Shown here: positions 252 to 28,811 of the stretch, in pieces
Layout: every line of letters starts with the position of its first letter
How positions within the stretch are numbered: position 1 is the stretch's first letter
Assembly (NCBI GenBank): GCA_964425655.1
Contig: CAYRMU010000002.1
Span: 1 to 44,585, forward strand
Direction: 5' to 3'
Length of the DNA: 44,585 nucleotides
From: an uncultured Candidatus Saccharibacteria bacterium
GTDB taxonomy: Bacteria > Patescibacteriota > Minisyncoccia > Phycocordibacterales > UBA918
Notes under the pieces: model-generated
Database searches by the model: none
Seen by the model: only the letters and a program-made list of their open reading frames with translations
What the model was told of the DNA's origin: nothing
Position numbers and translations under genes: made by a program

Positions 252-794
252 TTATTCAGCTTTTTGCAACGGTAAGCCGATGAATCGCAAGAGCGCTTCA
301 GCTTCTGCCTTGGTCTTTGCTGTAGTCACAATCGTGATAGCGAGACCGAAGACATCCTTGATTTCTTCATCAGCCGTCTCAGGGAAAATTGAGTGTTCCT
401 TGATACCGAGCGTAATGTTCCCCATCTCGTCAATCGCTGTTGTCTTGAGACCGCGGAAGTCGCGTGTCTGCGGCAAGGCAATGTGAACGAGTTTATCGAG
501 GAAGTGGTGCATCCGGGCGCCACGCATCGTGACCTGGTAGCCAATGATATCACCTTCGCGGAGCTTGAATGATGCGATTGACTGACGAGCCTTACGTGGA
601 GCAGCCTTCTGACCGGTAATGGTCGCGAGGCGGTTCTGGATAAGGGCAATCTTTGCCTTGTCCTCGATCTTTCCGGTTCCCGTTGAAACGATTACCTTCT
701 CGATACGTGGAGCTTGCATGACATTCTTGTACCCAAAGTCCCCCTTGAGTGCGTCAAATGCGCCGGCAATCTTCGTTTTCATAGTATCTGTCAT
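252..794 (-). CDS. rplE: 50S ribosomal protein uL5
   Basis: 180-aa ORF with an ATG start. The sequence is typical of uL5 (PRIEKVIVSTGTG, FRGL...DEMGNITLGIKEHSIFPE). It follows uL24 as in the spc operon. Confidence 0.95.
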   Translation of the reverse strand: MTDTMKTKIAGAFDALKGDFGYKNVMQAPRIEKVIVSTGTGKIEDKAKIALIQNRLATITGQKAAPRKARQSIASFKLREGDIIGYQVTMRGARMHHFLDKLVHIALPQTRDFRGLKTTAIDEMGNITLGIKEHSIFPETADEEIKDVFGLAITIVTTAKTKAEAEALLRFIGLPLQKAE

Positions 795-796
795 AC

Positions 797-1108
797 CTAG
801 ATAGATTTACCTGAAGGTCGTGCGATACGCACTTTCTTCACCTTATCACCCTCTTTCTCGACCTTGTATCCGGCACGTACCGCCTTTTTCCCTTCCATGA
901 GTGACACGTTAGAGACATGAACTGGTACATTCTTCTTGATCACCTGGCCCGCAGAACGGGTGCGGCGACTCTTCTGGTGGCGAGTGGCAATGTTGATGCC
1001 ATCGAGGAGTACCTGCTCGGTCTTTGGCAATGCCTCAGTTACCGTAGCAGTCTTTCCCTTATCTTTGCCCGCAATCACCAATACTGTGTCTCCTTTTTTG
1101 ATTTTCAT
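797..1108 (-). CDS. rplX: 50S ribosomal protein uL24
   Basis: 103-aa ORF. MKIKKGDTVLVIAGKDKGK is a KOW motif typical of uL24. It lies between uL14 and uL5. Confidence 0.95.
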   Translation of the reverse strand: MKIKKGDTVLVIAGKDKGKTATVTEALPKTEQVLLDGINIATRHQKSRRTRSAGQVIKKNVPVHVSNVSLMEGKKAVRAGYKVEKEGDKVKKVRIARPSGKSI

Positions 1109-1126
1109 ATATATATCAATTACGGG

Positions 1127-1498
1127 TTACACAACTTCTGGTGCCAAAGAAACAATCTTCTGGAAACCTGCTTCTGCAAGTTCACGTGGGATTGGGCCGA
1201 AGACACGGTTTGCCTTAGGTTCCTTACTTTCCTTGTTAACGATAACGACGGCGTTGTCATCAAAACTGATGTATGAGCCATCCTTTCGGCGGTAGGCTTT
1301 GCGCTGACGCACAACCACTCCGCACACCACGTCCTTCTTCTTCACCGCCTTACGCGGTTCCGCGGTCTGAATTGAGAGAATCACGAGTTCACCGAGTTCA
1401 GCATAGCGCTTCTTTGAACCGCCGAGGACCTTGAATACACGTCCTACTTTACCGCCAGAGTTGTCGGTAATTTTTACAATTGAACGATCTTGAATCAT
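1127..1498 (-). CDS. rplN: 50S ribosomal protein uL14
   Basis: 123-aa ORF. MIQDRS...VKITDNSGGK and the C-terminal GPIPRELAE...KIVSLAPEVV are characteristic of uL14. Confidence 0.95.
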   Translation of the reverse strand: MIQDRSIVKITDNSGGKVGRVFKVLGGSKKRYAELGELVILSIQTAEPRKAVKKKDVVCGVVVRQRKAYRRKDGSYISFDDNAVVIVNKESKEPKANRVFGPIPRELAEAGFQKIVSLAPEVV

Positions 1499-1502
1499 AC
1501 GC

Positions 1503-1760
1503 TTATGCTTTTACGAGCTCGAAGCGCTTGCGCTTAGAGATCGGACGAGTCTCTTTAATTTCGACCTTTTGCCCCACTGCTGCTGTGTTACCAGCGTCAT
1601 GTACCAAGTACTTCTTGGTTCGGCGCTGATACTTCTTGTACTTTGGGTGCTTGACGTAGCGTTCTACGGCTACGGTGCAGGTATCCTGCATCTTACTTGC
1701 CACCACGGTACCAGAGAGTACGCGACCGCCAGTCTTGGTTGTTGTTTCTGTGTTCGTCAT
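1503..1760 (-). CDS. rpsQ: 30S ribosomal protein uS17
   Basis: 85-aa ORF. G.VVASKMQDTCTVAVERYVKHPKYKKY matches the uS17 core. Position in the operon is conserved. Confidence 0.93.
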   Translation of the reverse strand: MTNTETTTKTGGRVLSGTVVASKMQDTCTVAVERYVKHPKYKKYQRRTKKYLVHDAGNTAAVGQKVEIKETRPISKRKRFELVKA

Positions 1761-1765
1761 AGGAG

Positions 1766-1975
1766 TTACGCTGTCTTAGCTGCTGATGCGTTACGACGGG
1801 CAGTAGCTTCGGTGAGTGCCCAAGCAATCTGCTTGCGCGCGTCACGTACCTTCTGCACATCGCCACTACCTACACCTCCGGTGCCGAAGCGAACGGTGCG
1901 GAGTACTTCACGCTGCTCGCGGACGAGTGTCGTGAGTTCTGCATCGGTCTTCTTTGCAATATCTTTGTAGTTCAT
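1766..1975 (-). CDS. rpmC: 50S ribosomal protein uL29
   Basis: The track ORF begins at a GTG (1993). I prefer the ATG at 1975 (MNYKDIAKKTDAEL...), which gives a 69-aa protein of typical uL29 size placed just after the rplP stop. Confidence 0.85.
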   Translation of the reverse strand: MNYKDIAKKTDAELTTLVREQREVLRTVRFGTGGVGSGDVQKVRDARKQIAWALTEATARRNASAAKTA

Positions 1976-1985
1976 GGTAATCAGC

Positions 1986-2420
1986 TTATACACGTGTGTC
2001 TTCGCGACGAACGACCTTGGCCTTCAAAGGAAGCTTACACGCTGCCTTACGGAGGGCTTCACGGGCGATCTCTTCAGAGACACCGTCAACCTCGAATAAT
2101 ACTCGACCTGGGCGTACTTCAAACATAAAGTGATCTGGATCTCCCTTACCCTTACCCATCGGTACTTCTGCCGCCTTCTGAGTTACTGGTCGGTCTGGGA
2201 AGATACGAATCCAAATCTTTCCGGTCTTGCCGAGTGTTCGTGAGATCACGCGACGAGCGGCTTCAATCTGGTTACTGGCAACGCGTGAGTCAGTTGTAGC
2301 CTTAAGTCCATATGAACCAAATGCTACGGTGATACCACGAGTCTCAGGCTTCATGCGCTTCGCTGCACTCTTGCGGCCTACTTGCCACTTGCGGTGCAAT
2401 GTCTTTTTTGGAAATAACAT
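1986..2420 (-). CDS. rplP: 50S ribosomal protein uL16
   Basis: 144-aa ORF. MLFPKKTLHRK...GSYGLKA...IWIRIFPD.PVT.K..E.PMGKGKG is the uL16 signature. Confidence 0.95.
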   Translation of the reverse strand: MLFPKKTLHRKWQVGRKSAAKRMKPETRGITVAFGSYGLKATTDSRVASNQIEAARRVISRTLGKTGKIWIRIFPDRPVTQKAAEVPMGKGKGDPDHFMFEVRPGRVLFEVDGVSEEIAREALRKAACKLPLKAKVVRREDTRV

Positions 2421-2431
2421 ACGCGTGACGC

Positions 2432-3157
2432 TTATGCAGCAGAGTTAGGTCGGCGGGTACGTGCTGCCGGCGCCGCTGGCGCTTCAGCTGCCTTGCTTCG
2501 ATCAGCAAAGATGTCGCCTCGGTAAATCCAAACCTTTACACCAATCACACCGTACGGGAGATTAGCGCGCTCACGAGCAAAGTCGATGTCTGCGCGGAGT
2601 GTCTGGAGTGGAATTCGACCCTTCTTGAGCTCTTCGCGGCGAGCCATATCAGCTCCACCGAGACGGCCTGAAACAATGATGCGAACACCCTGTACGTCGC
2701 GGTTCGCCATTACTTTCTCCACGGTCATTTTAAGGACGCGGCGGAACGGCATACGCTTCTCAAGGCCTTCAACGATCATTTGTCCAACGATTGCCGCTGA
2801 GGTTTCAACAGAGCGGACTTCTTCAATATCAATCTTAATCTCCGGCATCTGCTGGAGCTTAAGGGTACGCAAGAGCTGTGAGAGCTCTTTTTTGAGTACC
2901 ACTGCACCTTCCCCACTGCGGCCAATGATGAGGCCTGGGCGGGCGGTCTTTACAATGAGACGAAGGGTCTCTTTGTTACGCTCAATTTCGATTGCGTCAA
3001 CTGACATACCCTTGAGCTTCTTCGAAAGGTGCTTGCGAATTGCAGCATCGGTACGAATGTACTCACGGTAGGTCTTTGGATCTGTAGTGACCCAGCGACT
3101 GCGCCAGTCACGGATGATACCGACGCGCTGAACGTATGGATGGGCTACGTGTGTCAT
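2432..3157 (-). CDS. rpsC: 30S ribosomal protein uS3
   Basis: 241-aa ORF with a KH-domain region and RLGGADMARRE...GRIPLQTLRADIDF. It has an Ala/Pro-rich C-terminal tail. Confidence 0.95.
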   Translation of the reverse strand: MTHVAHPYVQRVGIIRDWRSRWVTTDPKTYREYIRTDAAIRKHLSKKLKGMSVDAIEIERNKETLRLIVKTARPGLIIGRSGEGAVVLKKELSQLLRTLKLQQMPEIKIDIEEVRSVETSAAIVGQMIVEGLEKRMPFRRVLKMTVEKVMANRDVQGVRIIVSGRLGGADMARREELKKGRIPLQTLRADIDFARERANLPYGVIGVKVWIYRGDIFADRSKAAEAPAAPAARTRRPNSAA

Positions 3158-3165
3158 AGATTTCC

Positions 3166-3489
3166 TTACTTAGTACCGAGCTCGACGGTAATGTGACTTG
3201 AGCGCTTGTTGATTGGCGATGCTGAACCACGGGCTCGTGGCATGAATCGCTTCTGGGTTACCCCTTTATCAACAGACACTTTCTTAATAATGAGCGCATC
3301 GGCTGCCACTCCCGTTGCGAGGGCGTTTGCCTTCGCTGAGAGAATAACCTTTGCAAATGGACCAGCTGCACGCTTATCAACGAAGTTGAGTTGGGCAAGT
3401 GCGGCATCAACCTTCTTTCCTCGAACCAGATCAGCAATCAGGCGAACCTTACGTGGTGACTGTCGGTAGTTTTTGAGAACTGCTTTCAT
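3166..3489 (-). CDS. rplV: 50S ribosomal protein uL22
   Basis: 107-aa ORF. SPRKVRLIADLVRGKKV..A...L is typical of uL22. Operon position fits. Confidence 0.93.
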   Translation of the reverse strand: MKAVLKNYRQSPRKVRLIADLVRGKKVDAALAQLNFVDKRAAGPFAKVILSAKANALATGVAADALIIKKVSVDKGVTQKRFMPRARGSASPINKRSSHITVELGTK

Positions 3490-3497
3490 ACCACAGA

Positions 3498-3830
3498 TTA
3501 CTTAGTTGCCTTTGCGGCCTTAGCAGCTGCAATTTCGGCATCCTTCTTCTTCTGGTCAAGCTCCTTCTGCATCTTACCGCCGTGGCGATAGAATTTGGTG
3601 GTTGGTGAAAATTCACCGAGACGATGACCTACCATGTCCTCAGTTGCGAGAACTTCAATGTGGTCCTTACCATTGTGAACACCAAAGGTAAAACCAATCA
3701 TTTCTGGTGAAATCACACAGTCTCGTGCCCATACCTTGATTGGTGCCTTGTAGTCCTCCGGCTTCTTGCCGACAACTTTCTTCAGCACTTTTTCATCAAC
3801 GTATGGACCCTTATAGAGTGATCGTGACAT
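3498..3830 (-). CDS. rpsS: 30S ribosomal protein uS19
   Basis: 110-aa ORF. MSRSLYKGPYVD...HNGKDHIEV.ATEDMVGHRLGEF.PT matches uS19. It has a Lys/Ala-rich C-terminal extension. Confidence 0.95.
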   Translation of the reverse strand: MSRSLYKGPYVDEKVLKKVVGKKPEDYKAPIKVWARDCVISPEMIGFTFGVHNGKDHIEVLATEDMVGHRLGEFSPTTKFYRHGGKMQKELDQKKKDAEIAAAKAAKATK

Positions 3831-3985
3831 ACAGAAAAATCACAGCTACACCCACTTTGGGCGTAGTGCGCTACGAATAATATGCTCTTCCTCTCCTTCT
3901 CACGCATGTGAGAGAGGCGTATAACGGTTTTGTCTGCATATTGCCCTACCAGAGGCGAATATGTAAACGAGGTCAGAACGGGGCT

Positions 3986-4014
3986 ATAGTACGGGAAATA
4001 CCTATAAAAGTCAA
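3986..4014 (-). promoter_or_regulatory. Sigma70-type promoter for the rpsS-rplE block
   Basis: The minus strand reads TTGACT - 17 nt - TACTAT. It lies directly after the terminator of the inserted gene 4062-5147, about 150 nt upstream of rpsS. Confidence 0.55.
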
Positions 4015-4016
4015 TT

Positions 4017-4050
4017 AAACCAGCAGCGGCAGTATGACCGCTGCTGGTTT
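4017..4050 (-). terminator. Terminator hairpin of 4062-5147
   Basis: CCAGCAGCGG / CCGCTGCTGG is a 10-bp stem with an 8-nt loop. The T-rich tail is short (TTTAATTG). Confidence 0.6.
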
Positions 4051-4061
4051 ATACGGGTACT

Positions 4062-5147
4062 TTAGTAACACCCGACTTGCGTTGGAACTGCTCGACAGCT
4101 GCCTGGATTTTCACAGTTAGTTGTCCGATTTTCTGAACAGGTTTCAGGCGTAGTATTGCTCCAGGCGTGACGGGTGAGATAGCATGGACCCCAGCACATA
4201 TTAGTACATGCTGAACTGCCACCTTGCGTTGTCGTCCATTGCTGGTAGAGTGCCCAACCGGCTGGGCATGAAGCTTGGGCAAACTGACAGAACTTGTCTG
4301 CACCCGACGTATACACTGTACCGCCAAGATCAGTACACTGCTTCTCAGAATGTTGGCCATTGACGAGCATTGGTCCAGTTGAACCACTCGGTACACCACA
4401 TGACCAGACACCACCATTTGAAATCAGCGTTTCGCCGTTTCCACATGCAGGAAGCCCACTTGCTGAATTGCCACTTGCACCAATGTATCCAATTAAACGA
4501 ACTTCAACGTTTTGTGTTGCATACGATTGCATCAAAATAATGCCAGCAGCATTTGTTGCAACAGTAACGTATCCCATGCGATTAGCTGACCCGAATAACT
4601 GAAGTCCCGAAGCGCCTGCACCCACCCCACTTCCCACGGTTGAACCCTGAACTCCAGCCACACCCTTTGGTTTAAACGTAAAAGAGTTAGTCGTATTTTG
4701 ACTTGTCGTTACATGGAGATAAACGAGTGTTGCTCGGGCACCGACTATTGCAGCAAGATTAAGATCTATTCCACCGGTATCAACTGCACCACTACCTGTG
4801 ATTGAACCACTGTAAACCACCTGATTAGTAGATACCCACCCGCCGCCCGCAACAGACCCGCAGTTCTCACCGTTTTCATCACAATACTCAGCCGCACCCA
4901 CTCGGCCTGTAACCGTCAGGTCTAAATCATTTACATCAGAGGTACCTCTGACCAGTACTCCTCCTGCCACATCGAGTGCGCCAACGCCTAATCCACCGGA
5001 CTTAATCTGTGACACACCTCCAGTATTGACAGGAGCTGCAACATTGCTTCCTGTGGGAACAGCGGTTGGTGCTGTCCAGGCTGAGAGATAATCAGCCCCA
5101 ATAAGGAGACAGAGTACTAAAATCAAAATTATTGATGAACGGAACAT
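4062..5147 (-). CDS. Secreted Cys-rich modular protein, paralog 1 (function unknown)
   Basis: 361-aa ORF with an ATG start. Signal peptide MFRSSIILILVLCLLIGADYLSA|W. Its N-module (WTAP..P..SNVAAPVNTG, Q.K.G.LGV, YCDENGENC) is shared with 5924-6838 and 8852-9520. Its C-terminal 92-aa 10-Cys module ending TQVGCY is shared with 8852-9520. A terminator hairpin follows. Confidence 0.85.
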   Translation of the reverse strand: MFRSSIILILVLCLLIGADYLSAWTAPTAVPTGSNVAAPVNTGGVSQIKSGGLGVGALDVAGGVLVRGTSDVNDLDLTVTGRVGAAEYCDENGENCGSVAGGGWVSTNQVVYSGSITGSGAVDTGGIDLNLAAIVGARATLVYLHVTTSQNTTNSFTFKPKGVAGVQGSTVGSGVGAGASGLQLFGSANRMGYVTVATNAAGIILMQSYATQNVEVRLIGYIGASGNSASGLPACGNGETLISNGGVWSCGVPSGSTGPMLVNGQHSEKQCTDLGGTVYTSGADKFCQFAQASCPAGWALYQQWTTTQGGSSACTNMCWGPCYLTRHAWSNTTPETCSENRTTNCENPGSCRAVPTQVGCY

Positions 5148-5281
5148 GGCGAAATTGAGAAAAATTTGATTGTACTGTAAGTATACTGGATGTATCTAAT
5201 ACACCATATACCTATCCCCACGCGCGCTGATGTCACTTATTCTGTTACATTAATACAGTCCATGCTAGGCTTGTACCATCT

Positions 5282-5602
5282 ATGCCTAAGCCCCGCGGTC
5301 GAGAACACACCACCCTCACAGAAACAGCCACCGAAGTGGTTAGGGTTTTAGAGCGTATCCCGGGCGTCAAAATGATTGCCCCAGGTGAGATTCGCACCAC
5401 ACAACGCCGAAAAGGTGGCAAACGACACCTAACGCTGGTATATACGAGTGCCGGCTTTGAACTCATCATTACCGGACAAAGTGTTCAGAAGGTAGCGGTA
5501 CACACTGAAGGAGACCCGCTACTAGTGGGAGGAGCGCTCCTTGCTCACAAGGAGCTCCGAGAGTTTGCCGCAAAAGCCCGAGAACGAAAGCCTGGTATAT
5601 AA
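5282..5602 (+). CDS. Small conserved-looking hypothetical protein (106 aa)
   Basis: ORF with an ATG start and no obvious SD, followed immediately by a 13-bp hairpin (5602-5631). The REHTTLT ... MIAPGEI ... GGKRHLTLVYTSAGFELIITGQSVQKVAVH pattern vaguely recalls DUF2103/COG4031-type proteins. That resemblance is from memory only. Confidence 0.55.
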   Translation: MPKPRGREHTTLTETATEVVRVLERIPGVKMIAPGEIRTTQRRKGGKRHLTLVYTSAGFELIITGQSVQKVAVHTEGDPLLVGGALLAHKELREFAAKARERKPGI

Positions 5603-5631
5603 AGAAATCTCCCCGACTGGGGAGATTTCTT
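5602..5631. terminator. Bidirectional hairpin between convergent genes 5282-5602 and 5634-5909
   Basis: AAGAAATCTCCCC-gact-GGGGAGATTTCTT is a 13-bp perfect stem whose arms are T-rich at both ends. Confidence 0.65.
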
Positions 5632-5633
5632 TA

Positions 5634-5909
5634 CTAGTCATTTGGATCTATAACTTCGTCACCTTCTTTGGGTGGTGGTATGGTTGCCGGGTCAGGCAGC
5701 GGAACACCTTCAACAAACTCAATGTCATCCGCAACAGGTGGCAGCAGTGCGGGATTAATCGTTGTATCAGGCTTAGGTGCTACCGGCTCTGGACGTGCCG
5801 CACTGTTACCTACAAAAAGCTGGTGAGCAACAGCTGACAGACCAAATAGTGTGCCTATGAGCACCCCGATTACTATACCAACTGTTGCACCTGCTAGATA
5901 CTGTTTCAT
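5634..5909 (-). CDS. Small single-pass membrane protein with a Pro-rich tail
   Basis: 91-aa ORF with an ATG 14 nt after the stop of 5924-6838. It has an N-terminal TM helix (GATVGIVIGVLIGTLFGLSAV) followed by a Pro/acidic-rich segment. Confidence 0.6.
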   Translation of the reverse strand: MKQYLAGATVGIVIGVLIGTLFGLSAVAHQLFVGNSAARPEPVAPKPDTTINPALLPPVADDIEFVEGVPLPDPATIPPPKEGDEVIDPND

Positions 5910-5923
5910 ATATACGTAGAAGA

Positions 5924-6838
5924 TTAATTTGACGCATCACAATATAATCCATCAATGCGACTGTTGTATGCACTCGCGCCGTACCGCTGCCACTGCCCTG
6001 AAGCATTCAGGAGATGGATGCCGTTATTGCTTGGTGAACTATACGCACCACTAACTGAACCAACGACGGTACTTCCTGGGTAGAAGTAGTTGCACACCCA
6101 AGCCATTTCGGCAGTACGATGGCCAATTGACGAAACGTTCCAATACGCAATACCGGGCACGCCAGCATCTTGCAGCGCTTTGGTCAGTGCATGTCCTCCA
6201 ACAATGTAGCGAATATCAGCAGTTGGAGTAAAGTTCTCTACGCCATAGCTGAACGCCTTGCCTTCACTAGCCAGTTGTGAGATAGATTTCCCAGTGCAGT
6301 CACCCGCCACGTTTTCAGAGTAAAATCCCTGGTCAAGCCGGTACATCTTGTACCACCCTGCACCTGGTCCATAGTAGTAGGCGTATCCGTTACTGTATGG
6401 AAGGTAGCCTCCCTGGTAGACCACCGTTACACCGTTATTCTCGCGACACACGATTGAATCAGGCCAATCCTGGACCTGTGTTCGAATATTACTCTGACCA
6501 CTTGCCACCGTACTAAGATCGGTACAATTTAGACCATTCTCATCGCAGTATTGATCAGCACCTATTTTGCCCTCAACTTCAAGTGTTACCGCTCTGTTAA
6601 ATGCGTCAGAAGTTGATGCACCCTGTACGTACGCACTACCAAACACACTGAGCCCTCCCACACCGAGCAAACCTTCCTTATCTTGCGGCGCGGCCCCGGT
6701 ATTAAGTGGTGCTGCCACATTGCTACTGGTTGGACTTGCCATTGGCGCAGTCCACGCAAAGAGTGCATCACCAGCAACAAGTGCCGCGAGTACCACGGCC
6801 AATGATGCAAACTGCACGTGACGACTAAATAATTTCAT
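5924..6838 (-). CDS. Secreted modular protein, paralog 2 (function unknown)
   Basis: 304-aa ORF. It has a signal peptide and the same N-module as paralogs 1 and 3 (FAWTAP..SP.SSNVAAPLNTG, Q.K.G.LGV, YCDENGLNC). Its Tyr/Gly/Trp-rich C-terminal half is unrelated to the other two. Confidence 0.85.
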   Translation of the reverse strand: MKLFSRHVQFASLAVVLAALVAGDALFAWTAPMASPTSSNVAAPLNTGAAPQDKEGLLGVGGLSVFGSAYVQGASTSDAFNRAVTLEVEGKIGADQYCDENGLNCTDLSTVASGQSNIRTQVQDWPDSIVCRENNGVTVVYQGGYLPYSNGYAYYYGPGAGWYKMYRLDQGFYSENVAGDCTGKSISQLASEGKAFSYGVENFTPTADIRYIVGGHALTKALQDAGVPGIAYWNVSSIGHRTAEMAWVCNYFYPGSTVVGSVSGAYSSPSNNGIHLLNASGQWQRYGASAYNSRIDGLYCDASN

Positions 6839-6981
6839 ATAAATAAATCCTAAAATCTAAACCCTACGTCTATTTTACATGGGTATAGTGCACTGGGTAC
6901 TACATATTCACAGAATACTGTACTCGAGGAGATAGTATGTGGTTACGTATTCCATGTACAGATGCATACAGCGAGCAAAAA

Positions 6982-7019
6982 CAAAAATACCGCCACCCTT
7001 GCGGGTGGCGGTATTTTTG
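6982..7019. terminator. Terminator after rpsJ (bidirectional shape)
   Basis: ATACCGCCACCC-ttgc-GGGTGGCGGTAT, flanked by an A5 run and a T5 run, lies 4 nt after the rpsJ stop. Confidence 0.8.
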
Positions 7020-7022
7020 TTT

Positions 7023-7370
7023 TTACATCATCTTCACATCAATGCTGACGCCTGATGGAAGGGAGAGGTTGGTCAATGCTTCAATCACCTTCGCACTTGG
7101 ATTCTCGATGTCGATAACGCGCTTATGCATGCGCATTTCGAATTGTTCTCGCGCATCTTTATGCACGAAGGTTGAGCGGTTCACCGTGTACTTCTTGATT
7201 TCTGTTGGCAAAGGGATTGGACCAACAACTGCTGCATCGAAACGCAACGCAGTGTCAATAATCGACTTTACACTGGTATCAAGAATCTTGTGCTCGTACG
7301 CACGAACACGGATTCGTAGCTTTTGGATTTCTCCAGCGGCTGCTTTTTTGGTCGTTTTGGCTTCAGCCAT
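7023..7370 (-). CDS. rpsJ: 30S ribosomal protein uS10
   Basis: 115-aa ORF. KLRIRVRAYEHKILD.S...I.......GPIPLPTE...YTV.RS..V.K..REQFEMR.HKR.IDI is the uS10 signature. Confidence 0.95.
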   Translation of the reverse strand: MAEAKTTKKAAAGEIQKLRIRVRAYEHKILDTSVKSIIDTALRFDAAVVGPIPLPTEIKKYTVNRSTFVHKDAREQFEMRMHKRVIDIENPSAKVIEALTNLSLPSGVSIDVKMM

Positions 7371-7405
7371 AAATAGTGGGTACCCGTACTGGGTAGCGAA
7401 CGTGC

Positions 7406-8596
7406 TTACGCAACGATCTTGGTTACCACACCGGCACCTACAGTCTTACCACCCTCGCGGATAGCAAAACTCTGTGACTCTTCCAATGCAATTGGAGATA
7501 CGAGCTTTACCTTGAAGGTAGCTGTATCACCTGGCATTACCATTTCTGTACCTTCAGCAAGTGTTACGTCGCCGGTTACGTCAGTGGTGCGGATGTAGAA
7601 CTGTGGCTTGTAACCTGAGAAGAACGGTGTGTGACGACCACCTTCTTCCTTTGAAAGAACGTACACCTCAGCTTCGAATTCGGTGTGTGGTGTTACTGAG
7701 CCCTTCTTCGCAAGTACCTGACCACGGTGTACATCCTCCTTCTTGATACCGCGGATAAGGATACCAGCGTTGTCGCCAGCCTGTGCCTGATCGAGTGACT
7801 TGTTGAACATTTCAACGCCGGTCACGGTAGTACTTGCAGTATCCTTGATACCAACAATTTCTACTTCTTCACCTACCTTAACAGCTCCACGCTCCACACG
7901 ACCAGTTACGACGGTACCTCGTCCTTCAATTGAGAAGATGTCCTCAATTGGCATAAGGAATGGCTTGTCGAGTTGGCGAACTGGAGTTGGGAAGAATGTA
8001 TCCATTGCATTCACGAGCTCCATTACCTTGTCAGCCCATTCACCACCTTCTGGTGCGTTAAGCGCCTGGAGGCCTGAACCCTTAATAACTGGAGTGTTTG
8101 CTCCGTCGTATCCGTTCTTCGTGAGAAGCTCTCGGAGTTCCTCTTCTACGAGCTCAATCATTTCAGCGTCATCCACCATGTCTACCTTGTTGAGGAATAC
8201 GATGATGTTTGGTACACCTACCTGCTTTGCGAGGAGAACGTGCTCACGAGTCTGTGGCATCGCACCGTCGGTTGCAGCTACTACGAGTACTGCGCCGTCC
8301 ATCTGAGCAGCACCGGTAATCATGTTCTTGATGTAGTCGGCGTGTCCTGGAGCGTCAATGTGCGCGTAGTGGCGACTTGGTGTCCAGTACTCACTGTGTG
8401 AGAGAGAAATAGTAATACCACGAGCCTTTTCTTCTGGGGCCTTGTCGATTTCGTCTACTCCTTTAACGTTAGCTCCGTAGTCCCCTCCCTTCTTTGAGAG
8501 AACGTTGAGAATAGCAGCGGTAAGGGTAGTTTTACCGTGGTCAACGTGACCGATGGTACCTACGTTTACGTGCGGCTTTGTACGATCAAATGACAT
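7406..8596 (-). CDS. tuf: Elongation factor Tu
   Basis: I set the start at the ATG at 8596 ([28 protein letters not shown]). The GTPase motifs DAPGH and NKVD are present. The 15 upstream residues in the track are a spurious extension. Confidence 0.96.
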
Positions 8597-8790
8597 ATAA
8601 ATGTAATTGTTCTTACTTTTAATTAAATAATTACCGCACACGGCTGCTATTCATATTGATATATGAAAAGTGGCACGAGCGCTCGGTCATCGTGGCGCGA
8701 GAACGGCGCACCATGACTGAGCACTGATGTGAAAGAGCAGATATAATCTTAGCCCCGCACGACCGCTAACGGCCGTATGCAGTGCGAGCT

Positions 8791-8818
8791 ATAGTACCAG
8801 ACTAGTCCGGTTTTGCAA
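8791..8818 (-). promoter_or_regulatory. Candidate promoter for tuf-rpsJ
   Basis: The minus strand reads TTGCAA - 16 nt - TACTAT. It would give a leader of about 190 nt before tuf. Confidence 0.4.
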
Positions 8819-8851: not shown

Positions 8852-9520
8852 CTAGTAACAGCCGACCTGGGTAATAGTAGCTGTACAGGTAGCGCTGCCC
8901 CCAAAATCGCATCCTCGTGCAGTATCTCGTCCTGGCACGTACGTACAGGTGGCTGGATTTAGATTTGTAAACGCATGCCCAGCGGCGGTACAGCGCGTAC
9001 CGCATGCATTGCCACACGTCTGGCTCGCGGTGGTTGTCCATTGCTGGTACTTAGTCCAACCTGAAGGACAGCTCACACCATTAAAGCGGCAGACGGAAAC
9101 TGATCCTGTATTAAAGATAGTTCCCCCGGCAGCGGTACACTGCGCTTGTGTGTGCACACCATAGACAATATCGGTACTCGGTGAAGCAGCCCCACTGAAG
9201 GTATCGATAATTGATTTAGCAGTAAAACAATTTTGACCATTCTCATCGCAGTATGCACTCGCGGCAATATTGCCGGTAAGTGAAATTTTTGTGTCGACAG
9301 TTGGTACGTCTGCGCGATTTACCATAATTGCATCCCCCGCTATCAGCTCACTAACGCCAAGAAGCCCAGGCTTCGTTTGTGTGGTGCCACTCGTATTAAC
9401 CGGCGCAGCCACGTTGCTACTTGGCGGGACTGCGGCTGGTGCTACCCAGGCAGAGAGGTAATCTGCTCCGATGAGAAACGTGAGGACGAGGAGCAGGGCT
9501 AGCGGGGTTTTGTAGTTCAT
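8852..9520 (-). CDS. Secreted Cys-rich modular protein, paralog 3 (function unknown)
   Basis: I set the start at the ATG at 9520 (MNYKTPLALLLVLTFLIGADYLSA|W). The GTG extension in the track would run to the edge of the hairpin at 9568-9602. It carries both the N-module and the 96-aa 10-Cys C-module (ending TQVGCY) shared with paralog 1. Confidence 0.85.
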   Translation of the reverse strand: MNYKTPLALLLVLTFLIGADYLSAWVAPAAVPPSSNVAAPVNTSGTTQTKPGLLGVSELIAGDAIMVNRADVPTVDTKISLTGNIAASAYCDENGQNCFTAKSIIDTFSGAASPSTDIVYGVHTQAQCTAAGGTIFNTGSVSVCRFNGVSCPSGWTKYQQWTTTASQTCGNACGTRCTAAGHAFTNLNPATCTYVPGRDTARGCDFGGSATCTATITQVGCY

Positions 9521-9567: not shown

Positions 9568-9602
9568 CAGAGACGGTCGAGGCAAAGCCTCGACCGTCTC
9601 TG
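9568..9602 (-). other. 15-bp perfect GC-rich hairpin without a U-tract
   Basis: CAGAGACGGTCGAGG-caaag-CCTCGACCGTCTCTG lies between the stop of 9621-10001 and the promoter of 8852-9520. Confidence 0.6.
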
Positions 9603-9620
9603 CACTTCAGGCAAAACTAT

Positions 9621-10001
9621 CTATGCTGCTTGCGCCTCATCCACTACACTATGCGGAGCATCAAAGAGCGCGATAAACTGATCGAAACTATCGTCTCTCG
9701 CGGCATTAAATTTGGTCGGTACAAATTCAAGTACGACACCGAGGTCCGCTAGGGCCTTGGTAACATCGTGCTGGCAAAGCTCCAGCTTCCTTCGGTCATC
9801 AAGCACCGATTGTCGCCCGCCATACGCTATCTGTTCAGCTAGCGTTTGATAGGCGTTAACCGCAGCAACAACGGTTGGTTCTGCGCCGTAGCGTTCAAAT
9901 ACTCGTTCTCCCGAGAGGGTCTGTAGTGTCTTCTGATTGTAGCTCTCGTTCGCTGCTGCTTTAGGTACTGGGTTCTGACCAAATAAACCAAATATTTTCA
10001 T
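9621..10001 (-). CDS. Hypothetical cytoplasmic protein (126 aa)
   Basis: Only the part from the ATG at 10001 (MKIFGLFGQ...) is taken. The upstream part of the 264-aa track ORF overlaps rplB in another frame. It is preceded by the rplB terminator and an extended -10 box, and followed by a hairpin. Confidence 0.6.
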   Translation of the reverse strand: MKIFGLFGQNPVPKAAANESYNQKTLQTLSGERVFERYGAEPTVVAAVNAYQTLAEQIAYGGRQSVLDDRRKLELCQHDVTKALADLGVVLEFVPTKFNAARDDSFDQFIALFDAPHSVVDEAQAA

Positions 10002-10010: not shown

Positions 10011-10019
10011 AGTATACCA
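10011..10019 (-). promoter_or_regulatory. Extended -10 promoter (TGgTATACT) 9 nt upstream of the ATG at 10001
   Basis: The minus strand reads ttTGgTATACTcatagacatATG, immediately after the rplB terminator. Confidence 0.45.
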
Positions 10020-10052
10020 AAACAACCGGCGCCTGCAGGCGCCGGTTGTTTG
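10019..10052 (-). terminator. Terminator after rplB
   Basis: AACAACCGGCGCC-tgca-GGCGCCGGTTGTT is a 13-bp stem followed by TTGG. Confidence 0.7.
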
Positions 10053-10062: not shown

Positions 10063-10914
10063 CTAGCTTCGCTTGCCCACCTTGCGGCGAGAAACAATAG
10101 CTTTGTTTGAGTACTTCTTTGGTGATCGTGTCTTCTGACCCTTGCCAGTTGGACGACCCTGCTTCGTACGGGCTCGGCGGTGGCCACGCGGTGCGCGACC
10201 TTCACCTCCTCCGTGTGGGTGGTCAACGGCGTTTCGGGCTGAACCACGGTTCTTCGGACGAAGTCCCATGTGTCGAGCGCGACCAGCCTTACCAATCGAT
10301 ACCAAACGGTTTTCTTCGTTTGAAACCTCACCGATGGTTGCCCAAGCAGTTGAGGTAACCTTGCGAACTTCCGTTGATGGCATCTTGAGTGAGGTAGTAC
10401 CGCCGTCTTGCGCAACTACTTCAGCGTAGTTACCAGCAGAACGAGCGAGACGTGCACCTGCTCCCGGCTTCAACTCCACGTTGAACACAAAGGTACCAAC
10501 AGGAATCTTGTGAAGCGGCAAGCGGTTACCCGACTTTACCTTCGCCTCTTCTGAGACGATAAACTCATCACCAGCCTTGAAAGACTGTGGTGCGAGTACG
10601 TAGCGACGCTCACCATCTTTGTAGAGTACAAGGGCGATGAAGCCAGTGCGGTACGGGTCGTATTCAATCGTTTCAACAATTGCAGGGATATCTTTCTTGT
10701 TGTACTGGAAGTCAATTGCACGGTATGTTCGCTTATTTCCACCACCACGGTAGAGCTGCGTTGTGCGTCCCTGACTATTTCGTCCACCAGTACTTCGTCC
10801 ACCTTTCGTGAGCGACTTCAATGGGTTACTCTGGGTTGAGGTAAGCTTCTTCTTATACTCAATTACCGAACCATCGCGACGTCCAGCAGAGGTAGGCTTG
10901 TATGCTTTAACCAT
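10063..10914 (-). CDS. rplB: 50S ribosomal protein uL2
   Basis: 283-aa ORF. RN..G..T...RGGG.KR.YR.IDF and GSARNAVDHPHGGGEG are uL2 hallmarks. Confidence 0.96.
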   Translation of the reverse strand: MVKAYKPTSAGRRDGSVIEYKKKLTSTQSNPLKSLTKGGRSTGGRNSQGRTTQLYRGGGNKRTYRAIDFQYNKKDIPAIVETIEYDPYRTGFIALVLYKDGERRYVLAPQSFKAGDEFIVSEEAKVKSGNRLPLHKIPVGTFVFNVELKPGAGARLARSAGNYAEVVAQDGGTTSLKMPSTEVRKVTSTAWATIGEVSNEENRLVSIGKAGRARHMGLRPKNRGSARNAVDHPHGGGEGRAPRGHRRARTKQGRPTGKGQKTRSPKKYSNKAIVSRRKVGKRS

Positions 10915-10924
10915 ATACTAGAGA

Positions 10925-11296
10925 TTACACGAGGCTGATGGAGTCGCCCTTTTTCAAGTAGACGTACGCCTTCTTCATCCCCTTTTCTGTTAATACGCGA
11001 TTCTTTGCCTTCGACTTATACTGTCGAGGCGTTTTGTTCACGATGTTTACATTCACCGGCGTCACGTTGTAGAGCGCTTTTACCGCAGCCATCACATCAC
11101 GCTTGGTGGCTGTCCGACGAACTTCGAATGTGTATACGTTCTGTTCTCCGAGACGCACCGCCTTTTCAGTGATACGTGGCTTAACGATAACACTTGAGAG
11201 GTTTGCGTCAGTAGCACGAGCTGTTACAGCTGGTGCACTCACGGTCTTCTCAACTGCGCTCTCTTCGATTTTTTTACTTCGACTGAAGAGTGCCAT
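10925..11296 (-). CDS. rplW: 50S ribosomal protein uL23 (N-terminally extended)
   Basis: 123-aa ORF. The core IVKPRITEKA......NVYTFEV...A.K.....AV...Y.V.P..VN matches uL23. An extra leader of about 30 aa is present. Confidence 0.9.
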   Translation of the reverse strand: MALFSRSKKIEESAVEKTVSAPAVTARATDANLSSVIVKPRITEKAVRLGEQNVYTFEVRRTATKRDVMAAVKALYNVTPVNVNIVNKTPRQYKSKAKNRVLTEKGMKKAYVYLKKGDSISLV

Positions 11297-11326
11297 ACTT
11301 AAATAATTACTGAATCAAATCTGCTA

Positions 11327-12010: not shown

Positions 12011-12020
12011 ATGAATACAC

Positions 12021-12641: not shown

Positions 12642-12727
12642 TGCGTTATTTTTGAACTAGTCTTATAAAGTCGCTTTAAAACTAGACCCAATGCCCGAAA
12701 ATAAGACCAAAGTCTTATAGCGGGTAA

Positions 12728-16685: not shown

Positions 16686-16799
16686 AAATGTTCTTCGTAC
16701 TTATATATGTATAGTTTTAATAATCCCTCCCTAGTGCGCCGGTCACTGCTATAAGCAACAAAACACAATAGAAAAATTGCCCGAGAGCAAAGTGGCAGT

Positions 16800-16828
16800 A
16801 CTATACGGTATTTACGGCAAATCGGCAA
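16800..16828 (-). promoter_or_regulatory. Candidate promoter for fusA
   Basis: The minus strand reads TTGCCG - 17 nt - TATAGT, about 115 nt upstream of the fusA ATG. Confidence 0.5.
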
Positions 16829-21460: not shown

Positions 21461-21604
21461 TTATTTCTTCTTTGCAACCTTCTTGGTAGCCTTCTTCACG
21501 GTCTTCTTTACCGCCTTCTTAACTACCTTCTTCACGGTCTTCTTGGCTACCTTTTTTGCTGGAGCCTTCTTTGCAACTTTCTTAGCTGCTTTCTTTACTG
21601 CCAT
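21461..21604 (-). CDS. 47-aa Lys/Ala/Val-rich basic micro-protein (histone H1-tail-like)
   Basis: Not in the ORF track (under 60 aa). My hand translation of the minus strand gives MAVKKAAKKVAKKAPAKKVAKKTVKKVVKKAVKKTVKKATKKVAKKK-stop. It has an ATG start and a TAA stop. A terminator hairpin with a U-tract lies at 21415-21443. Confidence 0.6.
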   Translation of the reverse strand: MAVKKAAKKVAKKAPAKKVAKKTVKKVVKKAVKKTVKKATKKVAKKK

Positions 21605-25599: not shown

Positions 25600-25602
25600 G
25601 CT

Positions 25603-26709
25603 TTAGGCGGCTACCGCAGGGGCAGACATATCGAAGTTTGAGAACCCTTTTTCATGAGTTATCTCACGTTCAATCTGCAAGAACGGCGGCAAATCAATCG
25701 ATGTCTCCATATCGCTACGCGCTACCTCAATCTCAAGGTGCACTTCACTCGGCCGACGACCGGTATGGAACACATCAAGCTCACAGTAGTGCCCGTCGTA
25801 GACGAAGCAATGCCGCGTCTTATGAATATCAACCCGGCGATAATCACGCCGGATCAAATAGTTATCATACTCGGACCGAGTCAGGATACGCTCACGCTCA
25901 ACGGAGACCCCGGCTGCCACATACTCCTTGACGGTATGCGAGTAGACCCAGTAGTTGTTCTGGCCTCGCGCACGCACACGCTCAGTCTTGCCGGACACCC
26001 CGACCAGATACGTCTGCACAATATCGCACGGCACCGCATGTGAGGGTAGTTGCGACACGCTGAAGTTACCGACCAGAAACTTACGCTCCGCTTCAAGTGG
26101 CTCAGGCTCACCGAGGAGTCGTGCCAGAGCACCGACCGCCCGGTTGATTTTGCCGGAGAATGGTTCGCCCGGTTCATTCTTGATAACAATCATATGCGGC
26201 GTACCAACCCAGGCGTGCAACGTGCGGTCATCAAGCAGTTTTGCTTCTTCAAGTGTTTCGTACCGCGTCTCATTGGAAGCGGCGTTGTAAAACTGCTCAG
26301 CCCCATTGGCGGCACTGCGCATATAGATGACACCGTCGTAGCGCTCATCGCGAACCTGCTCAAAGCGCAAACCATGCTCGTGCAGGTAGCTTTGCAACTG
26401 CTCCATGCCCGTATAGGCCAACTGATCACAGACCCCGCGATCAGCAATCATCACCGGTTTCAGGCCATCGGCCTGCAGCCGTTTGGCGGCGTTGTGGTAC
26501 ATCGCTTCGTGATAGAGCACGTGCTCCAGCACCGCGGGTTGAAACTCCGGCCGCAGCTGACTGAAACCTGCTCGCATGAGTGACGTGGCGGCTTCGGGAA
26601 CAAAAATTGGGGAATACCCCCGCTCCAAAAGCCATTCACGCATACCAGCTTGCGCGGTGGTTTTTCCTGCACACGGGCCACCGGTGAGGACGATTCTGGG
26701 TATATTCAC
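25603..26709 (-). CDS. Fusion of a P-loop NTPase/kinase-like domain (AAA_28-like) and a CYTH (triphosphate tunnel metalloenzyme) domain
   Basis: 368-aa ORF. The GTG start has a GGAG SD 7 nt upstream. The N-terminus IVLTGGPCAGKTT is a Walker A motif. The C-terminal half starts with the CYTH ExExK motif (EAERKFLV) and ends with KTRHCFVYDGHYCELDVF......VHLEIEV. Confidence 0.7.
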   Translation of the reverse strand: MNIPRIVLTGGPCAGKTTAQAGMREWLLERGYSPIFVPEAATSLMRAGFSQLRPEFQPAVLEHVLYHEAMYHNAAKRLQADGLKPVMIADRGVCDQLAYTGMEQLQSYLHEHGLRFEQVRDERYDGVIYMRSAANGAEQFYNAASNETRYETLEEAKLLDDRTLHAWVGTPHMIVIKNEPGEPFSGKINRAVGALARLLGEPEPLEAERKFLVGNFSVSQLPSHAVPCDIVQTYLVGVSGKTERVRARGQNNYWVYSHTVKEYVAAGVSVERERILTRSEYDNYLIRRDYRRVDIHKTRHCFVYDGHYCELDVFHTGRRPSEVHLEIEVARSDMETSIDLPPFLQIEREITHEKGFSNFDMSAPAVAA

Positions 26710-26852
26710 GACAATACTCCTTTGTCAGAGAACAGTTTCTACCAACCCCGAACATACCATAGGCAGGATTGATTGCAACTACGAAAAAACACTAGTAATT
26801 TAGAAAAAGTAGCGTACTATACGGCCCGCCACGAAGTATAAGGAGTATGTGG

Positions 26853-27359
26853 ATGGAAAAGACGTTGACCCTCATCGGAAACATGATGTTTGGACTACGG
26901 TTCGTCATGTCGGTGTTCTATCTCGGCTTGGTATTGGTCATCATGACCGTATTGTGGAAATTTTGCGGAGAAGTGTTCTCGATTCTCTCTCCTGCAAAAA
27001 TAGCCAGCTTGTCCAAGATGGACATGATTATCAAGGTGCTTGAACTGGTTGATATGACCATGGTCGCCCAGCTCGTCTGGGTTGTAGCGCTCGCCGGTTT
27101 CTCGCTCTTTGTAACTGCTGCTCACTTTGAAGGTGACACAATCAAAAAGCCCGATTGGCTTGACCACGTCAACACCTACAACCTAAAGTTGAAGCTCGCT
27201 TTTGCGGTCATCTCTATCTCAGGGGTCCATGCACTGAAAACCTACCTCAAAGGTGGTGTCACCATGGACATGTTGGCTGTCGCAAGCGTACACTTCATCT
27301 TTGTTCTTTCCGCCGTCGGCATTGCGTATGCCGAACGCCTCGCCCACAAAAGTCACTAA
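26853..27359 (+). CDS. yqhA: UPF0114/YqhA family membrane protein
   Basis: I chose the second ATG (26853), which lies 7 nt after the AGGAG SD. LVDMTMV, VISISGVHAL, HFIFVLSA and the C-terminal RLAHKSH are colinear with E. coli YqhA as I recall it. A terminator follows. Confidence 0.8.
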   Translation: MEKTLTLIGNMMFGLRFVMSVFYLGLVLVIMTVLWKFCGEVFSILSPAKIASLSKMDMIIKVLELVDMTMVAQLVWVVALAGFSLFVTAAHFEGDTIKKPDWLDHVNTYNLKLKLAFAVISISGVHALKTYLKGGVTMDMLAVASVHFIFVLSAVGIAYAERLAHKSH

Positions 27360-27383
27360 GAAGCACCCAATATAAAAAAACCA

Positions 27384-27417
27384 AACACTCGAACCCAAAG
27401 GGTCCGAGTGTTTTTTA
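27384..27417 (+). terminator. Terminator after yqhA
   Basis: AACACTCG..ACC-caaag-GGT.CGAGTGTT followed by TTTTTT. Confidence 0.7.
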
Positions 27418-27604
27418 TAACGCTCGGAATAAATTATATATACACGGTAACCGAGATTTTCTAAAGCAGACAAGGCAAAAGGCCGGAAAATTTGCGGAAC
27501 TACACACGGTGGTAACTCCCATTTTCAGATGCTCCACCAGGGCATACCCATTTTTATAGTCGCTTCCACTCCTTAAAAATTAGATAAAGTATAAGGCGAA
27601 TAAG

Positions 27605-27630
27605 AAAAAAGACCCTCTCGGGTCATTTTT
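27605..27630 (-). terminator. Short terminator about 125 nt downstream of rpsG
   Basis: A6 - GACCC-tctc-GGGTC - aT5. The stem is only 5 bp. Confidence 0.45.
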
Positions 27631-27754
27631 CTAAAACTTTCACAAATTGAATGCAGGGCGAGGCGCGACGAGAAAATATTTTGAGGTGTACCTAGATGTA
27701 CATTGAAAAATATTTTCTTGGAAGCAACGAAGCCCAGCGTCAATTTTGGAAGTT

Positions 27755-28228
27755 TTACCAGGCGAAGTGGGCGAAAGCTCGGTTAGCCTCAGCCATCTTG
27801 TGCGTATCTTCCTTCTTCTTCACGGCTGCACCTTCTTCACGCGCTGCGAGCATGAGCTCTGAAGCCAACGCCTTGTGCATTGGCACACCCTTTTGGTTGC
27901 GCGCACCGTTGATAATCCAACGAAGGGCAAGGGCATGTCGTCGCTCTGGGCGAACTTCACGTGGTACCTGGTAGTTAGCTCCACCTACGCGGCGTGAGCG
28001 AACTTCCATTTGTGGACCAGCATTGCGGAGCGCTGTGTTGAAGATTTCGAGTGGGTCGCCACCGTGCTCCTTCGCATTCTTGATTTCCTCGAATGCGCCG
28101 TACACGATTTTGCGGGCGGTCTCCTTTTGACCACGGAGCATGATGTAGTTCACCAAGCGTTCAACTTCTGTTGAACCAAAGCGCACATCAGGCTTTACAA
28201 CGGGTCGGTTTTTAATTGGTCGTCGCAT
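27755..28228 (-). CDS. rpsG: 30S ribosomal protein uS7
   Basis: 157-aa ORF. P...PD..F.S..V.RLVNYIM..G.K..A..IVY and [17 protein letters not shown] matches uS7. Confidence 0.95.
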
Positions 28229-28400
28229 AATGTTGTTATTAATGCGAATGAGAAATATGACAAAATCATTTTTTCATTCTTCGCATAATGGTCTTTCATA
28301 CCGTATGTATGATTACCAATCGATAATCTGTAGCGAATATAAACTATTGTAATTGTAGGATTCGCGTCCTACCTGTGCTTGCGCACAACTCAACTGAGGA

Positions 28401-28811
28401 CTACGCCTTTGGTCGCTTTGCGCCGTAGCGTGAGCGGCCTCGTCGGCGCTTGTCTACGCCAGTTGAGTCGTACTTACCGCGGACGATAGTGTAGTTAACA
28501 CCGATGTCCTTCACGCGACCACCACGTACGAGTACTACTGAGTGCTCCTGCAAGTTGTGGCCGATACCTGGAATGTAGGCGGTGATTTCCTGACCGTTTG
28601 AAAGGCGTACACGAGCAATCTTTCGAATCGCTGAGTTCGGCTTACGTGGGGTCTTGGTAGTCACGCGTGTACATACACCACGCTTAAATGGTGAATTGTA
28701 TCGGTTGGGTGAATTCGTAATCGAATTGAACCCTCCCTGCAAAGCACCAGTGTTAGACTTAGTGACTTTGTCGCGTCGGTTCTTCTTTGCTAATTGATTG
28801 ATTGTTGCCAT
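28401..28811 (-). CDS. rpsL: 30S ribosomal protein uS12
   Basis: 136-aa [51 protein letters not shown] is the uS12 signature. Confidence 0.96.

Follow-up and report, generated by a model that had tools for sequence, protein, structure and literature searches.

Gene order and unit structure of a divided str-S10-spc ribosomal-protein cluster in an uncultured patescibacterial genus

The S10-spc block is among the most conserved gene orders of bacteria, and the placement of genomes of the candidate phyla radiation (CPR) by '16 syntenic ribosomal proteins on one contig' is based on it. The contig analysed here departs from this order. It measures 44,585 nucleotides (nt) and was taken as a whole (contig C2, positions 1-44585; hereafter the window) from a 94%-complete metagenome-assembled genome (MAG) of 898 kb in 76 contigs, labelled G000 in the comparisons. 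A first-pass annotation had described its str-S10-spc cluster as fragmented, with the tuf-rpsJ pair and the rplC-rplD-rplW-rplB block (rplCDWB) in exchanged positions. Two questions arise: does the genome really have this order, and how could such a cluster come apart? We consider it very probable that the arrangement is real and inherited, that the super-operon was dismantled into autonomous units which can be reshuffled, and that rplCDWB moved ahead of tuf-rpsJ.

Gene order in the window and soundness of the assembly

Pfam searches support all gene calls for ribosomal proteins and translation factors, and all of these genes lie on the minus strand. Read in that direction the order is rpsL-rpsG, 11 kb of other genes, fusA, sec364-tm111, rplC-rplD-rplW-rplB, an open reading frame (ORF) of 126 amino acids (aa) with par3, tuf-rpsJ, par2-tm91-DUF2103(+)-par1 and rpsS...rplE, which agrees with the fragmentation and the exchange described before. 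The genes said to be inserted at the breakpoints are present as well: every junction holds non-ribosomal ORFs. Unit 1 consists of rpsL (28401-28811; Ribosom_S12_S23, 1.8e-31) and rpsG (27755-28228; Ribosomal_S7, 2.8e-57), and unit 2 of fusA, which encodes EF-G (14505-16685; GTP_EFTU, EFG_III, EFG_IV and EFG_C). The relocated module, unit 3, is rplCDWB (10063-12641; Ribosomal_L3, L4, L23 and L2). Unit 4 spans 7023-8641 overall; here tuf (GTP_EFTU with D2 and D3) ends at 7406 and rpsJ, of which the genome has only one, occupies 7023-7370 (Ribosomal_S10, 6.8e-32). The start of tuf is at 8641 in the ORF listing and at 8596 according to the 396-aa gene call of independent contigs. The nine genes rpsS...rplE follow at 252-3830, each with a Pfam match (weak for L29, 1e-4). 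Pfam recovers the canonical str-S10-spc gene complement; the canonical order with short spacing is not found, as the joints hold 1.2-1.8 kb of other genes and rpsG and fusA are 11 kb apart.

One element of the earlier description does not hold. The absence of rpsN and rpsH after rplE had been listed among the irregularities, and it is explained by the contig, which stops 251 nt past rplE in non-coding sequence (1-251) and not at an operon end. Both genes are on other contigs: rpsN at the end of C57 (41-223), whereas rpsH-rplF-rplR-rpsE... open C43 (from position 12) and continue on C58. The gap between rplE and rpsN varies from 205 to 3,260 nt in relatives of the genus, and this position (rplE|rpsN) is probably a further joint of the cluster.

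A chimera made of misjoined metagenome reads, e.g. through the paralogous secreted-protein genes or through mixed strains, would be the simplest explanation of the unusual order. It would fit a MAG of so many contigs, the location of three paralogues at the breakpoints, and the fact that several independent contigs break at the same points of the window (63, 10022 and 10991). However, the window contains no long repeats, and the paralogues share no repeat of more than 48 nt (65-79% identity), which is too short to misguide an assembler. An exact-protein look-up of L2 yielded 23 contigs, and gene order was compared in 10 of these (their sources are seven NCBI metagenome assemblies, deposited separately, and two Logan assemblies). 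All 10, which stem from different samples and two assemblers, share the gene order of the window; apart from 10-44 private mismatches, each is colinear with it in a single high-scoring segment pair (99.4-100% identity), and for any given junction there are 3-8 contigs that cross it. The order fusA-rplCDWB-tuf-rpsJ-DUF2103-rpsS is moreover found in two further species, G017 and G295, on contigs of 18 kb and 110 kb, respectively. Because there is no misleading repeat, ten independent contigs are colinear and two other species have the same order, a chimera is hardly credible: the gene arrangement is real and not an assembly artefact. Of the shared contig ends, 10022 lies inside the palindrome of the rplB terminator, 63 near the end of the contig and 10991 within rplW; they may be places where assemblers stopped at hairpins, or variants within the population.

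Fragmentation and permutation among relatives

Comparing ribosomal-protein synteny in relatives had been proposed as a check by the first-pass annotation. We surveyed the positions of rpsJ and rplC in 100 sampled species of the genus, 87 of which have both genes. The canonical order, rpsJ before rplC on one contig, is seen in 71/87, with a gap of 259-19,063 nt (median 2,212); none of these 71 species has the two genes in tight adjacency. In 12/87 the genes are on different contigs, and in one species (G253) they are on opposite strands, 107 kb apart. The swap, with rplC upstream of rpsJ, is confined to 3/87 species, namely G000, G017 and G295. The fragmentation of the canonical order is therefore real, as had been claimed, but it is not particular to this genome.

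Outside the genus, all other patescibacterial loci with both fusA and rplC (46/46) read fusA-tuf-rpsJ-rplC, and the swap occurs in 0/46. Within the same order, members of other families (G028, G035, G038 and G040) have a fully contiguous bacterial block, with rpsJ and rplC 67-123 nt apart and rplB and rpsS 92-105 nt apart. Other families of the order show insertions at rpsJ|rplC (G025, G027) or at rplB|rpsS (G027, G032, G034, G036, G037, G039), and in most relatives rplCDWB is located between rpsJ and rpsS. Judged by these gene orders, fragmentation is ancestral to the genus, and in part to the order, and is not an event in this genome; the permutation is the rare, derived and lineage-specific part.

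The contents of the joints can be compared as well. Where the canonical order is kept, relatives have sec364, tm111 and a par gene between fusA and tuf, par genes and tm91 between rpsJ and rplC, and a par gene with the DUF2103 gene between rplB and rpsS. In the window, sec364 (13318-14412, minus strand), which encodes a Cys-rich signal-anchor protein with an internal repeat, and tm111 (12957-13292, minus), encoding a small transmembrane (TM) protein, follow fusA; homologues of both occupy the fusA|tuf gap in G001, G007, G016 and G295. Between rplB and tuf are the 126-aa ORF (9621-10001, minus), called as a 126-aa gene in independent contigs as well, a hairpin belonging to it, detected by folding (9569-9605), and par3 (8852-9520, minus), a 222-aa gene in the calls of independent contigs. 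After rpsJ come par2 (5924-6838, minus), tm91 (5634-5909, minus), the DUF2103 gene on the plus strand (5282-5602; Pfam DUF2103, 5e-6) and par1 (4062-5147, minus). No Pfam match was found for sec364, tm111, par2, tm91 or par1. By comparison with the relatives, the genes at 4062-6838 are best read as the fused remnants of the old rpsJ|rplC and rplB|rpsS gaps. Taken together, the gap contents agree with a single three-breakpoint exchange of adjacent blocks.

The products of par1, par2 and par3 have a common N-terminal module of about 85 residues (46-57% identity), and a C-terminal module is additionally common to par1 and par3. The traits of the family are a signal-anchor and the motifs AW(T/V)AP..SNVAAP(V/L)NT..Q.K.G.LGV.. 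and YCDENG.NC. Across the genus such genes recur in the fusA|tuf, rpsJ|rplC and rplB|rpsS gaps (G001, G007, G016, G256, G295), with up to five in a row in G016. The opposite-strand DUF2103 gene is a constant resident ahead of rpsS. A word-based homology search with par3 returned six matches, one of which is from a Candidatus Paceibacterota.

The three swapped species are not the only ones in which units have changed position. In G016, G274 and G278 rplCDWB is gone from the rpsJ-rpsS interval, which reads rpsJ-DUF2103-rpsS; in G016 and G278 it is not between fusA and tuf either, and in G274 the contig ends at rpsJ. All three have rplCDWB at one common new site. Homologues of the genes flanking this site adjoin, 194 nt apart, on contig C49 of the present genome (3567-5034), which represents the empty orthologous site. 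In G022, fusA is followed after 1.4 kb by rpsS..., and tuf-rpsJ-rplCDWB is 226 kb away. In G008, rplCDWB adjoins the tsp3 and gh15 genes.

Phylogenetic analysis was based on a concatenation of up to 17 proteins (3,433 columns, 24 taxa). G000 is placed as the sister of G256, which has the canonical order (89/81), and this pair is sister to the clade of G278, G016 and G274 (100/100). G295 is nested with the canonical G007, G009 and G010 (100/99). In the approximately unbiased (AU) test, a clade of G000 and G295 is rejected (delta log-likelihood 193.6, p 0.00075). Two earlier trees had an unresolved backbone, and the relation of G000 to G295 was settled after closer taxa had been added. Because the AU test rejects a single origin for G000 and G295, the swap into the fusA|tuf gap has, on this tree, arisen at least twice independently.

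Promoters, leaders and hairpins of the units

If the units can change places, each should have its own signals. Promoters were aligned by phylogenetic footprinting upstream of the first gene of each unit. The candidate promoter of rpsL-rpsG (28826-28853, here and below on the minus strand) reads TTGCAA-N16-TATCCT, within a block conserved in 9 genomes of the genus. For fusA a scan match, TTGCCG-17-TATAGT (16800-16828), is conserved in 14/14 aligned genus genomes. The rplCDWB promoter, TTGCGT-N16-TATACT (12856-12883), has a counterpart cTTGCa-N-gTATACT at the same place in 22/24 genus genomes, and that of tuf-rpsJ, TTGCAA-N16-TACTAT with a TG extension (8791-8818), is conserved in 18/18 aligned. 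Upstream of rpsS...rplE the scan match TTGACT-17-TACTAT (3986-4014) is conserved in 6/12 aligned genomes; in the remaining six the leader exceeds the stretch examined. These conserved promoters are of sigma-70 type and are kept before rpsL, fusA, tuf, rplC and rpsS whatever the arrangement. The four promoters predicted in the first-pass annotation fall exactly on them, even though a generic scan alone shows no enrichment.

The units also end in a characteristic way. After rpsG, inverted repeat I2 forms a hairpin that marks the end of unit 1 (27671-27718; -30.6 kcal/mol, z -4.9), and 75% of genus genomes have a hairpin there. The intrinsic terminator of fusA (14463-14499) comprises an A-tract, a GC stem and a U-tract (-32.2 kcal/mol, z -7.3; strong hairpin in 86% of genus genomes), and the terminator hairpin of rplB (10019-10052) is similarly stable (-33.9 kcal/mol, z -7.6; strong hairpin in 96%). 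The most stable fold is the bidirectional terminator of rpsJ (6977-7024), a perfect 22-bp inverted repeat, I1, with 100% complementarity (-41.8 kcal/mol, z -9.9). A 15-bp hairpin after par1 (4016-4051, minus) is the top match of the terminator scan (-26.9 kcal/mol, z -5.8), and the U-tract that follows it (AUUGACUUUUA) is weak. The four terminators claimed before are indeed very stable folds (z -5.8 to -9.9, reached by 0/200 shuffles), and a GC-rich hairpin with a U-tract follows the last gene of the units, as expected for intrinsic termination. Strong hairpins at module ends are also seen across the genus when the best 50-nt minimum free energy within 110 nt 3' of each gene is compared: the genus median is -22.0 kcal/mol for rpsG, -28.7 for fusA, -23.1 for rpsJ, -26.5 for rplB and -26.8 for rplE, against -11 to -16 kcal/mol for internal genes.

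The leader of the relocated module (12642-12854, minus) is structured, as supported by covariation and by a covariance model. It measures about 200 nt here and about 150 nt in most relatives, and it is conserved in about 22/24 genus genomes. Its elements are, in order, an invariant AAGACCUA, a GUUC/GAAC helix capped by hairpin P1 of free sequence, an invariant CCAAUGGGC(A), hairpin P2 and a U-rich stretch; GGUCU and a UUAUUAG box then lead to the start codon. P2 (12734-12781) has 20-25 bp and -35 to -56 kcal/mol and, with the U-rich tract behind it, resembles a terminator. RNAalifold, run on an unmodified MAFFT alignment, retrieved no more than the base of P2; the structure was drawn by hand from single-sequence folds and then tested. 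In this structure 85.5% of cells are paired, against 33-53% for slid partners, and 17 pairs show double changes, against 4-11 in controls; 0/500 shuffles reach any of the measures. The covariance model, R1, matches the genome once (12705-12854, 118 bits). Its other matches in a set of 200 genomes from the order are confined to the genus, apart from one weak match between rpsJ and rplC in another family. No Rfam match was obtained, either for the whole window at the gathering threshold or for the rplC leader at E <= 10.

A known leader offers a comparison. In Escherichia coli, L4 causes termination at a hairpin of the S10 leader, in addition to translational repression (PMC3616713). The rplC leader is likewise a structured 5' leader with a terminator-like hairpin ahead of the operon that encodes L4. 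It differs in that it precedes rplC and not rpsJ, and in that it has a two-helix junction with a possible closing helix in place of five hairpins; neither sequence nor Rfam models (gathering threshold, E <= 10) indicate homology of the two. A ribosomal protein, for instance L4, may sense the rplC leader, which would then be an autoregulatory attenuator. A different and somewhat doubtful reading takes the element for a separate small RNA gene of about 125 nt with P2 as its terminator, or for a terminator followed by a downstream rplC promoter. P2 is very stable and with its U-rich tract would end most transcripts; the interval from P2 to the ATG contains a conserved TTGTYG-N17-TATTAG, and P0, the closing helix by which the sequence downstream of P2 would be joined to the fold, has marginal support. 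On the other hand, the TAT(T/A)AG box lacks the final T that is found in all five well-conserved -10 boxes of the cluster. The element moves together with rplCDWB in the relocated copies examined (G000, G008, G016, G017), and the distant match is likewise directly upstream of rplC. Attenuator hairpins in ribosomal-protein leaders have, moreover, a known precedent in the E. coli S10 leader (PMC3616713). These observations count against the second reading.

The tuf leader (8597-8790, minus; about 190 nt) is structured as well: between the conserved blocks GCUCUUUCACA and GUUCUCGCGCC is a helix domain of 20 alifold pairs, and 16 of these show compensatory double changes. It has no Rfam match in the window scan at the gathering threshold. 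A tRNA cluster upstream of tuf was considered and rejected, as a tRNA scan of the window finds none. In the fusA leader (16686-16799, minus) a U-run (AUUUUUCUAUU) comes after a short conserved GC hairpin, an attenuator-like configuration. The 155-nt rpsS leader (3831-3985, minus) opens with CGUUCY..ACCUCG..CCUGGYAG, which is conserved together with the promoter in 6/12 aligned genomes. In rpsL only about 10-15 nt separate the -10 box from the ATG, so that its mRNA leader would be very short. The first genes of the units are without an obvious Shine-Dalgarno sequence, and AU-rich boxes (UUAUUAG, AUUAUUA) are located 15-40 nt ahead of the rplC and fusA starts.

With promoters, leaders and module-end hairpins conserved in relatives, the suggestion that each fragment forms a unit from promoter to terminator gains support at the level of sequence. 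A single co-transcript starting from the promoter upstream of rpsJ would be the alternative, and the conserved internal promoters and terminators argue against it.

Movement of rplCDWB and comparison with known systems

The history that we propose runs as follows. In the host genus, which belongs to the uncultured Paceibacteria (Parcubacteria, Kaiserbacteria-like) and whose most similar named records are MAGs of Candidatus Kaiserbacteria, Paceibacterota and Patescibacteria, an ancestral str-S10-spc super-operon would have been taken apart at fixed joints: rpsG|fusA, fusA|tuf, rpsJ|rplC, rplB|rpsS and rplE|rpsN. Every unit carries a sigma-70-type promoter and an intrinsic terminator, in most cases with a structured 5' leader as well, and the joints have been occupied by genes for secreted or membrane proteins. 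Because each unit would be self-sufficient, adjacency would no longer be selected and reshuffling would become possible. One rearrangement would then have moved the segment promoter-leader-rplCDWB-terminator from the rpsJ|rpsS interval to its present place between the fusA gap genes and tuf.

Such a move may have proceeded in one of two ways: a tandem duplication with later loss of copies, or the excision of the segment and its reinsertion elsewhere. The mechanism put forward in the first-pass annotation, recombination between same-strand paralogues, is of the second type: homologous recombination between par genes would have excised an rplCDWB circle, which re-integrated upstream of tuf. The genes needed for it exist, since par-type genes are present in all three gaps of canonical relatives (G001, G007, G016, G256), and the same three-joint exchange arose at least twice, as a repeat-driven bias predicts. 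One par gene is predicted on either side of the insert, however, and here the interval from tm111 to the rplC promoter contains neither such a gene nor a remnant of one. In addition, the present paralogues are too diverged (about 55% identical over 83 aa), and the sister clade put rplCDWB at a site whose flanking genes are not of the par type. We therefore regard this mechanism as unlikely.

Duplication followed by loss suits the gap contents at least as well. Here tuf-rpsJ-gap-rplCDWB would have been duplicated in tandem, after which the first tuf-rpsJ and the second rplCDWB were lost. This predicts fusA, then the old genes of the first gap (sec364, tm111), then rplC, as observed. It also predicts a novel joint after rplB, where the 126-aa ORF is followed by the par gene that precedes tuf in relatives, and the old genes of the second gap (par2, tm91) and third gap (DUF2103, par1) after rpsJ. 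A scar compatible with duplication is seen in G009, where a partial second rpsJ 3' end lies just upstream of rplC, and duplications have been implicated in rearrangements of operon clusters elsewhere (PMC8046335). The partial copy (locus L064, G009:C3, about 25877-26035) covers residues 63-115 at 85% identity and lies 254 nt upstream of rplC, with the intact rpsJ of G009 2.3 kb further upstream. On the other side, the window shows no trace of a second copy of tuf, rpsJ or rplCDWB, and cut-and-paste predicts an identical final order. We hold duplication and loss to be a possible route, put forward tentatively.

Several points count against the history of autonomous, reshuffled units as a whole. 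Separate transcription of the units would follow from conserved signals only, and a generic promoter scan of the region finds no more than shuffled sequence does (15 against 16.5 expected). All compared genomes are MAGs, and the backbone of the genus tree is close to a polytomy, in which a grouping of G000 with G017 is not rejected (p-AU 0.38); G017 may share its swap with either G000 or G295. As regards the rplC leader, the possible closing helix P0 is marginal (permutation p about 0.05) and cognate and non-cognate duplex energies barely differ; 23S rRNA, which bears on rRNA mimicry by CCAAUGGGC, is essentially missing from the MAG.

A more far-reaching proposal, which we offer as a speculation with less than even chances, is that rplCDWB acts as a position-independent cassette by virtue of its own promoter and a new attenuator that senses a ribosomal protein and is unrelated to the E. 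coli S10 leader. This would explain both the repeated relocation (at least two moves into the fusA|tuf gap and one to an unrelated site) and the convergence on archaeal boundaries that is described below. If true, the convergence would point to a deep modularity of ribosomal-protein genes, regulatory or based on assembly, and not to mere historical accident.

How does the locus compare with other divided clusters? Among published concepts the nearest is the 'invasion-separation' of ribosomal operon clusters, in which a few genes invade a joint, selection for co-location relaxes, and rearrangements later separate the pieces (PMC8046335). The present genus is alike in both stages. Small, variable and unrelated gene sets are found at the same joints in different species, amounting to 0.26-19 kb at rpsJ|rplC in 71 of them, with contents that differ between species, and full separation or rearrangement is seen in descendants (G022, G253, G016/G274/G278 and G000/G017/G295), with pieces more than 100 kb apart in some species. 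A difference is that the published joints lie between operons (PMC8046335), whereas rpsJ|rplC and rplB|rpsS cut the classical S10 operon internally and rplE|rpsN is inside spc. Also unlike the published cases, new promoters and leaders mark the units, unit order has been permuted repeatedly, and the host is a CPR genus. The general principle of invasion and then separation is already published; the present case extends it.

The boundaries of the modules, uS10 / uL3-uL4-uL23-uL2 / uS19..., match those in Archaea including Asgard, in which uL3-uL4-uL23-uL2 form a small cluster of their own, uS10 is always apart and uS19...uL5... belong to a large cluster (PMC10833476). In contrast to the archaeal arrangement, the large block is here additionally cut after uL5. 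Since relatives in the same order (G028, G035, G038, G040) keep a contiguous bacterial block, the resemblance is convergent. A detached tuf-rpsJ unit has a parallel in the str operon of cyanobacteria and plastids, where rps10 stands after tufA, apart from the rpl3 cluster. To our knowledge that arrangement is fixed across the whole phylum, whereas here the units still move within one genus. No account of such a split or permutation in CPR bacteria turned up in a literature search.

That a species-rich CPR genus has five or six movable units means that the order is not mechanistically required. With more than 80 species sharing the same joints and several independent reshufflings, the genus offers a natural experiment on the cohesion of ribosomal operons. 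For practical work, the split can scatter syntenic ribosomal-protein marker sets over several contigs. The rplC and tuf leaders are supplied as candidate new ribosomal-protein leader RNAs in a phylum for which we know of nothing on the regulation of ribosome synthesis.

Two minor observations and the base composition complete the description. The GC content of the window is about 50%, with a negative GC skew throughout. A 12-nt periodic repeat in nine overlapping copies is present at 21466-21600, on the strand opposite a listed ORF. Another odd join occurs in a distant patescibacterial MAG ('bacterium isolate GFS_3829'; locus L126, JAYTMX010000045.1), where fusA is preceded, at a distance of 191 nt, by an rplE homologue on the same strand.

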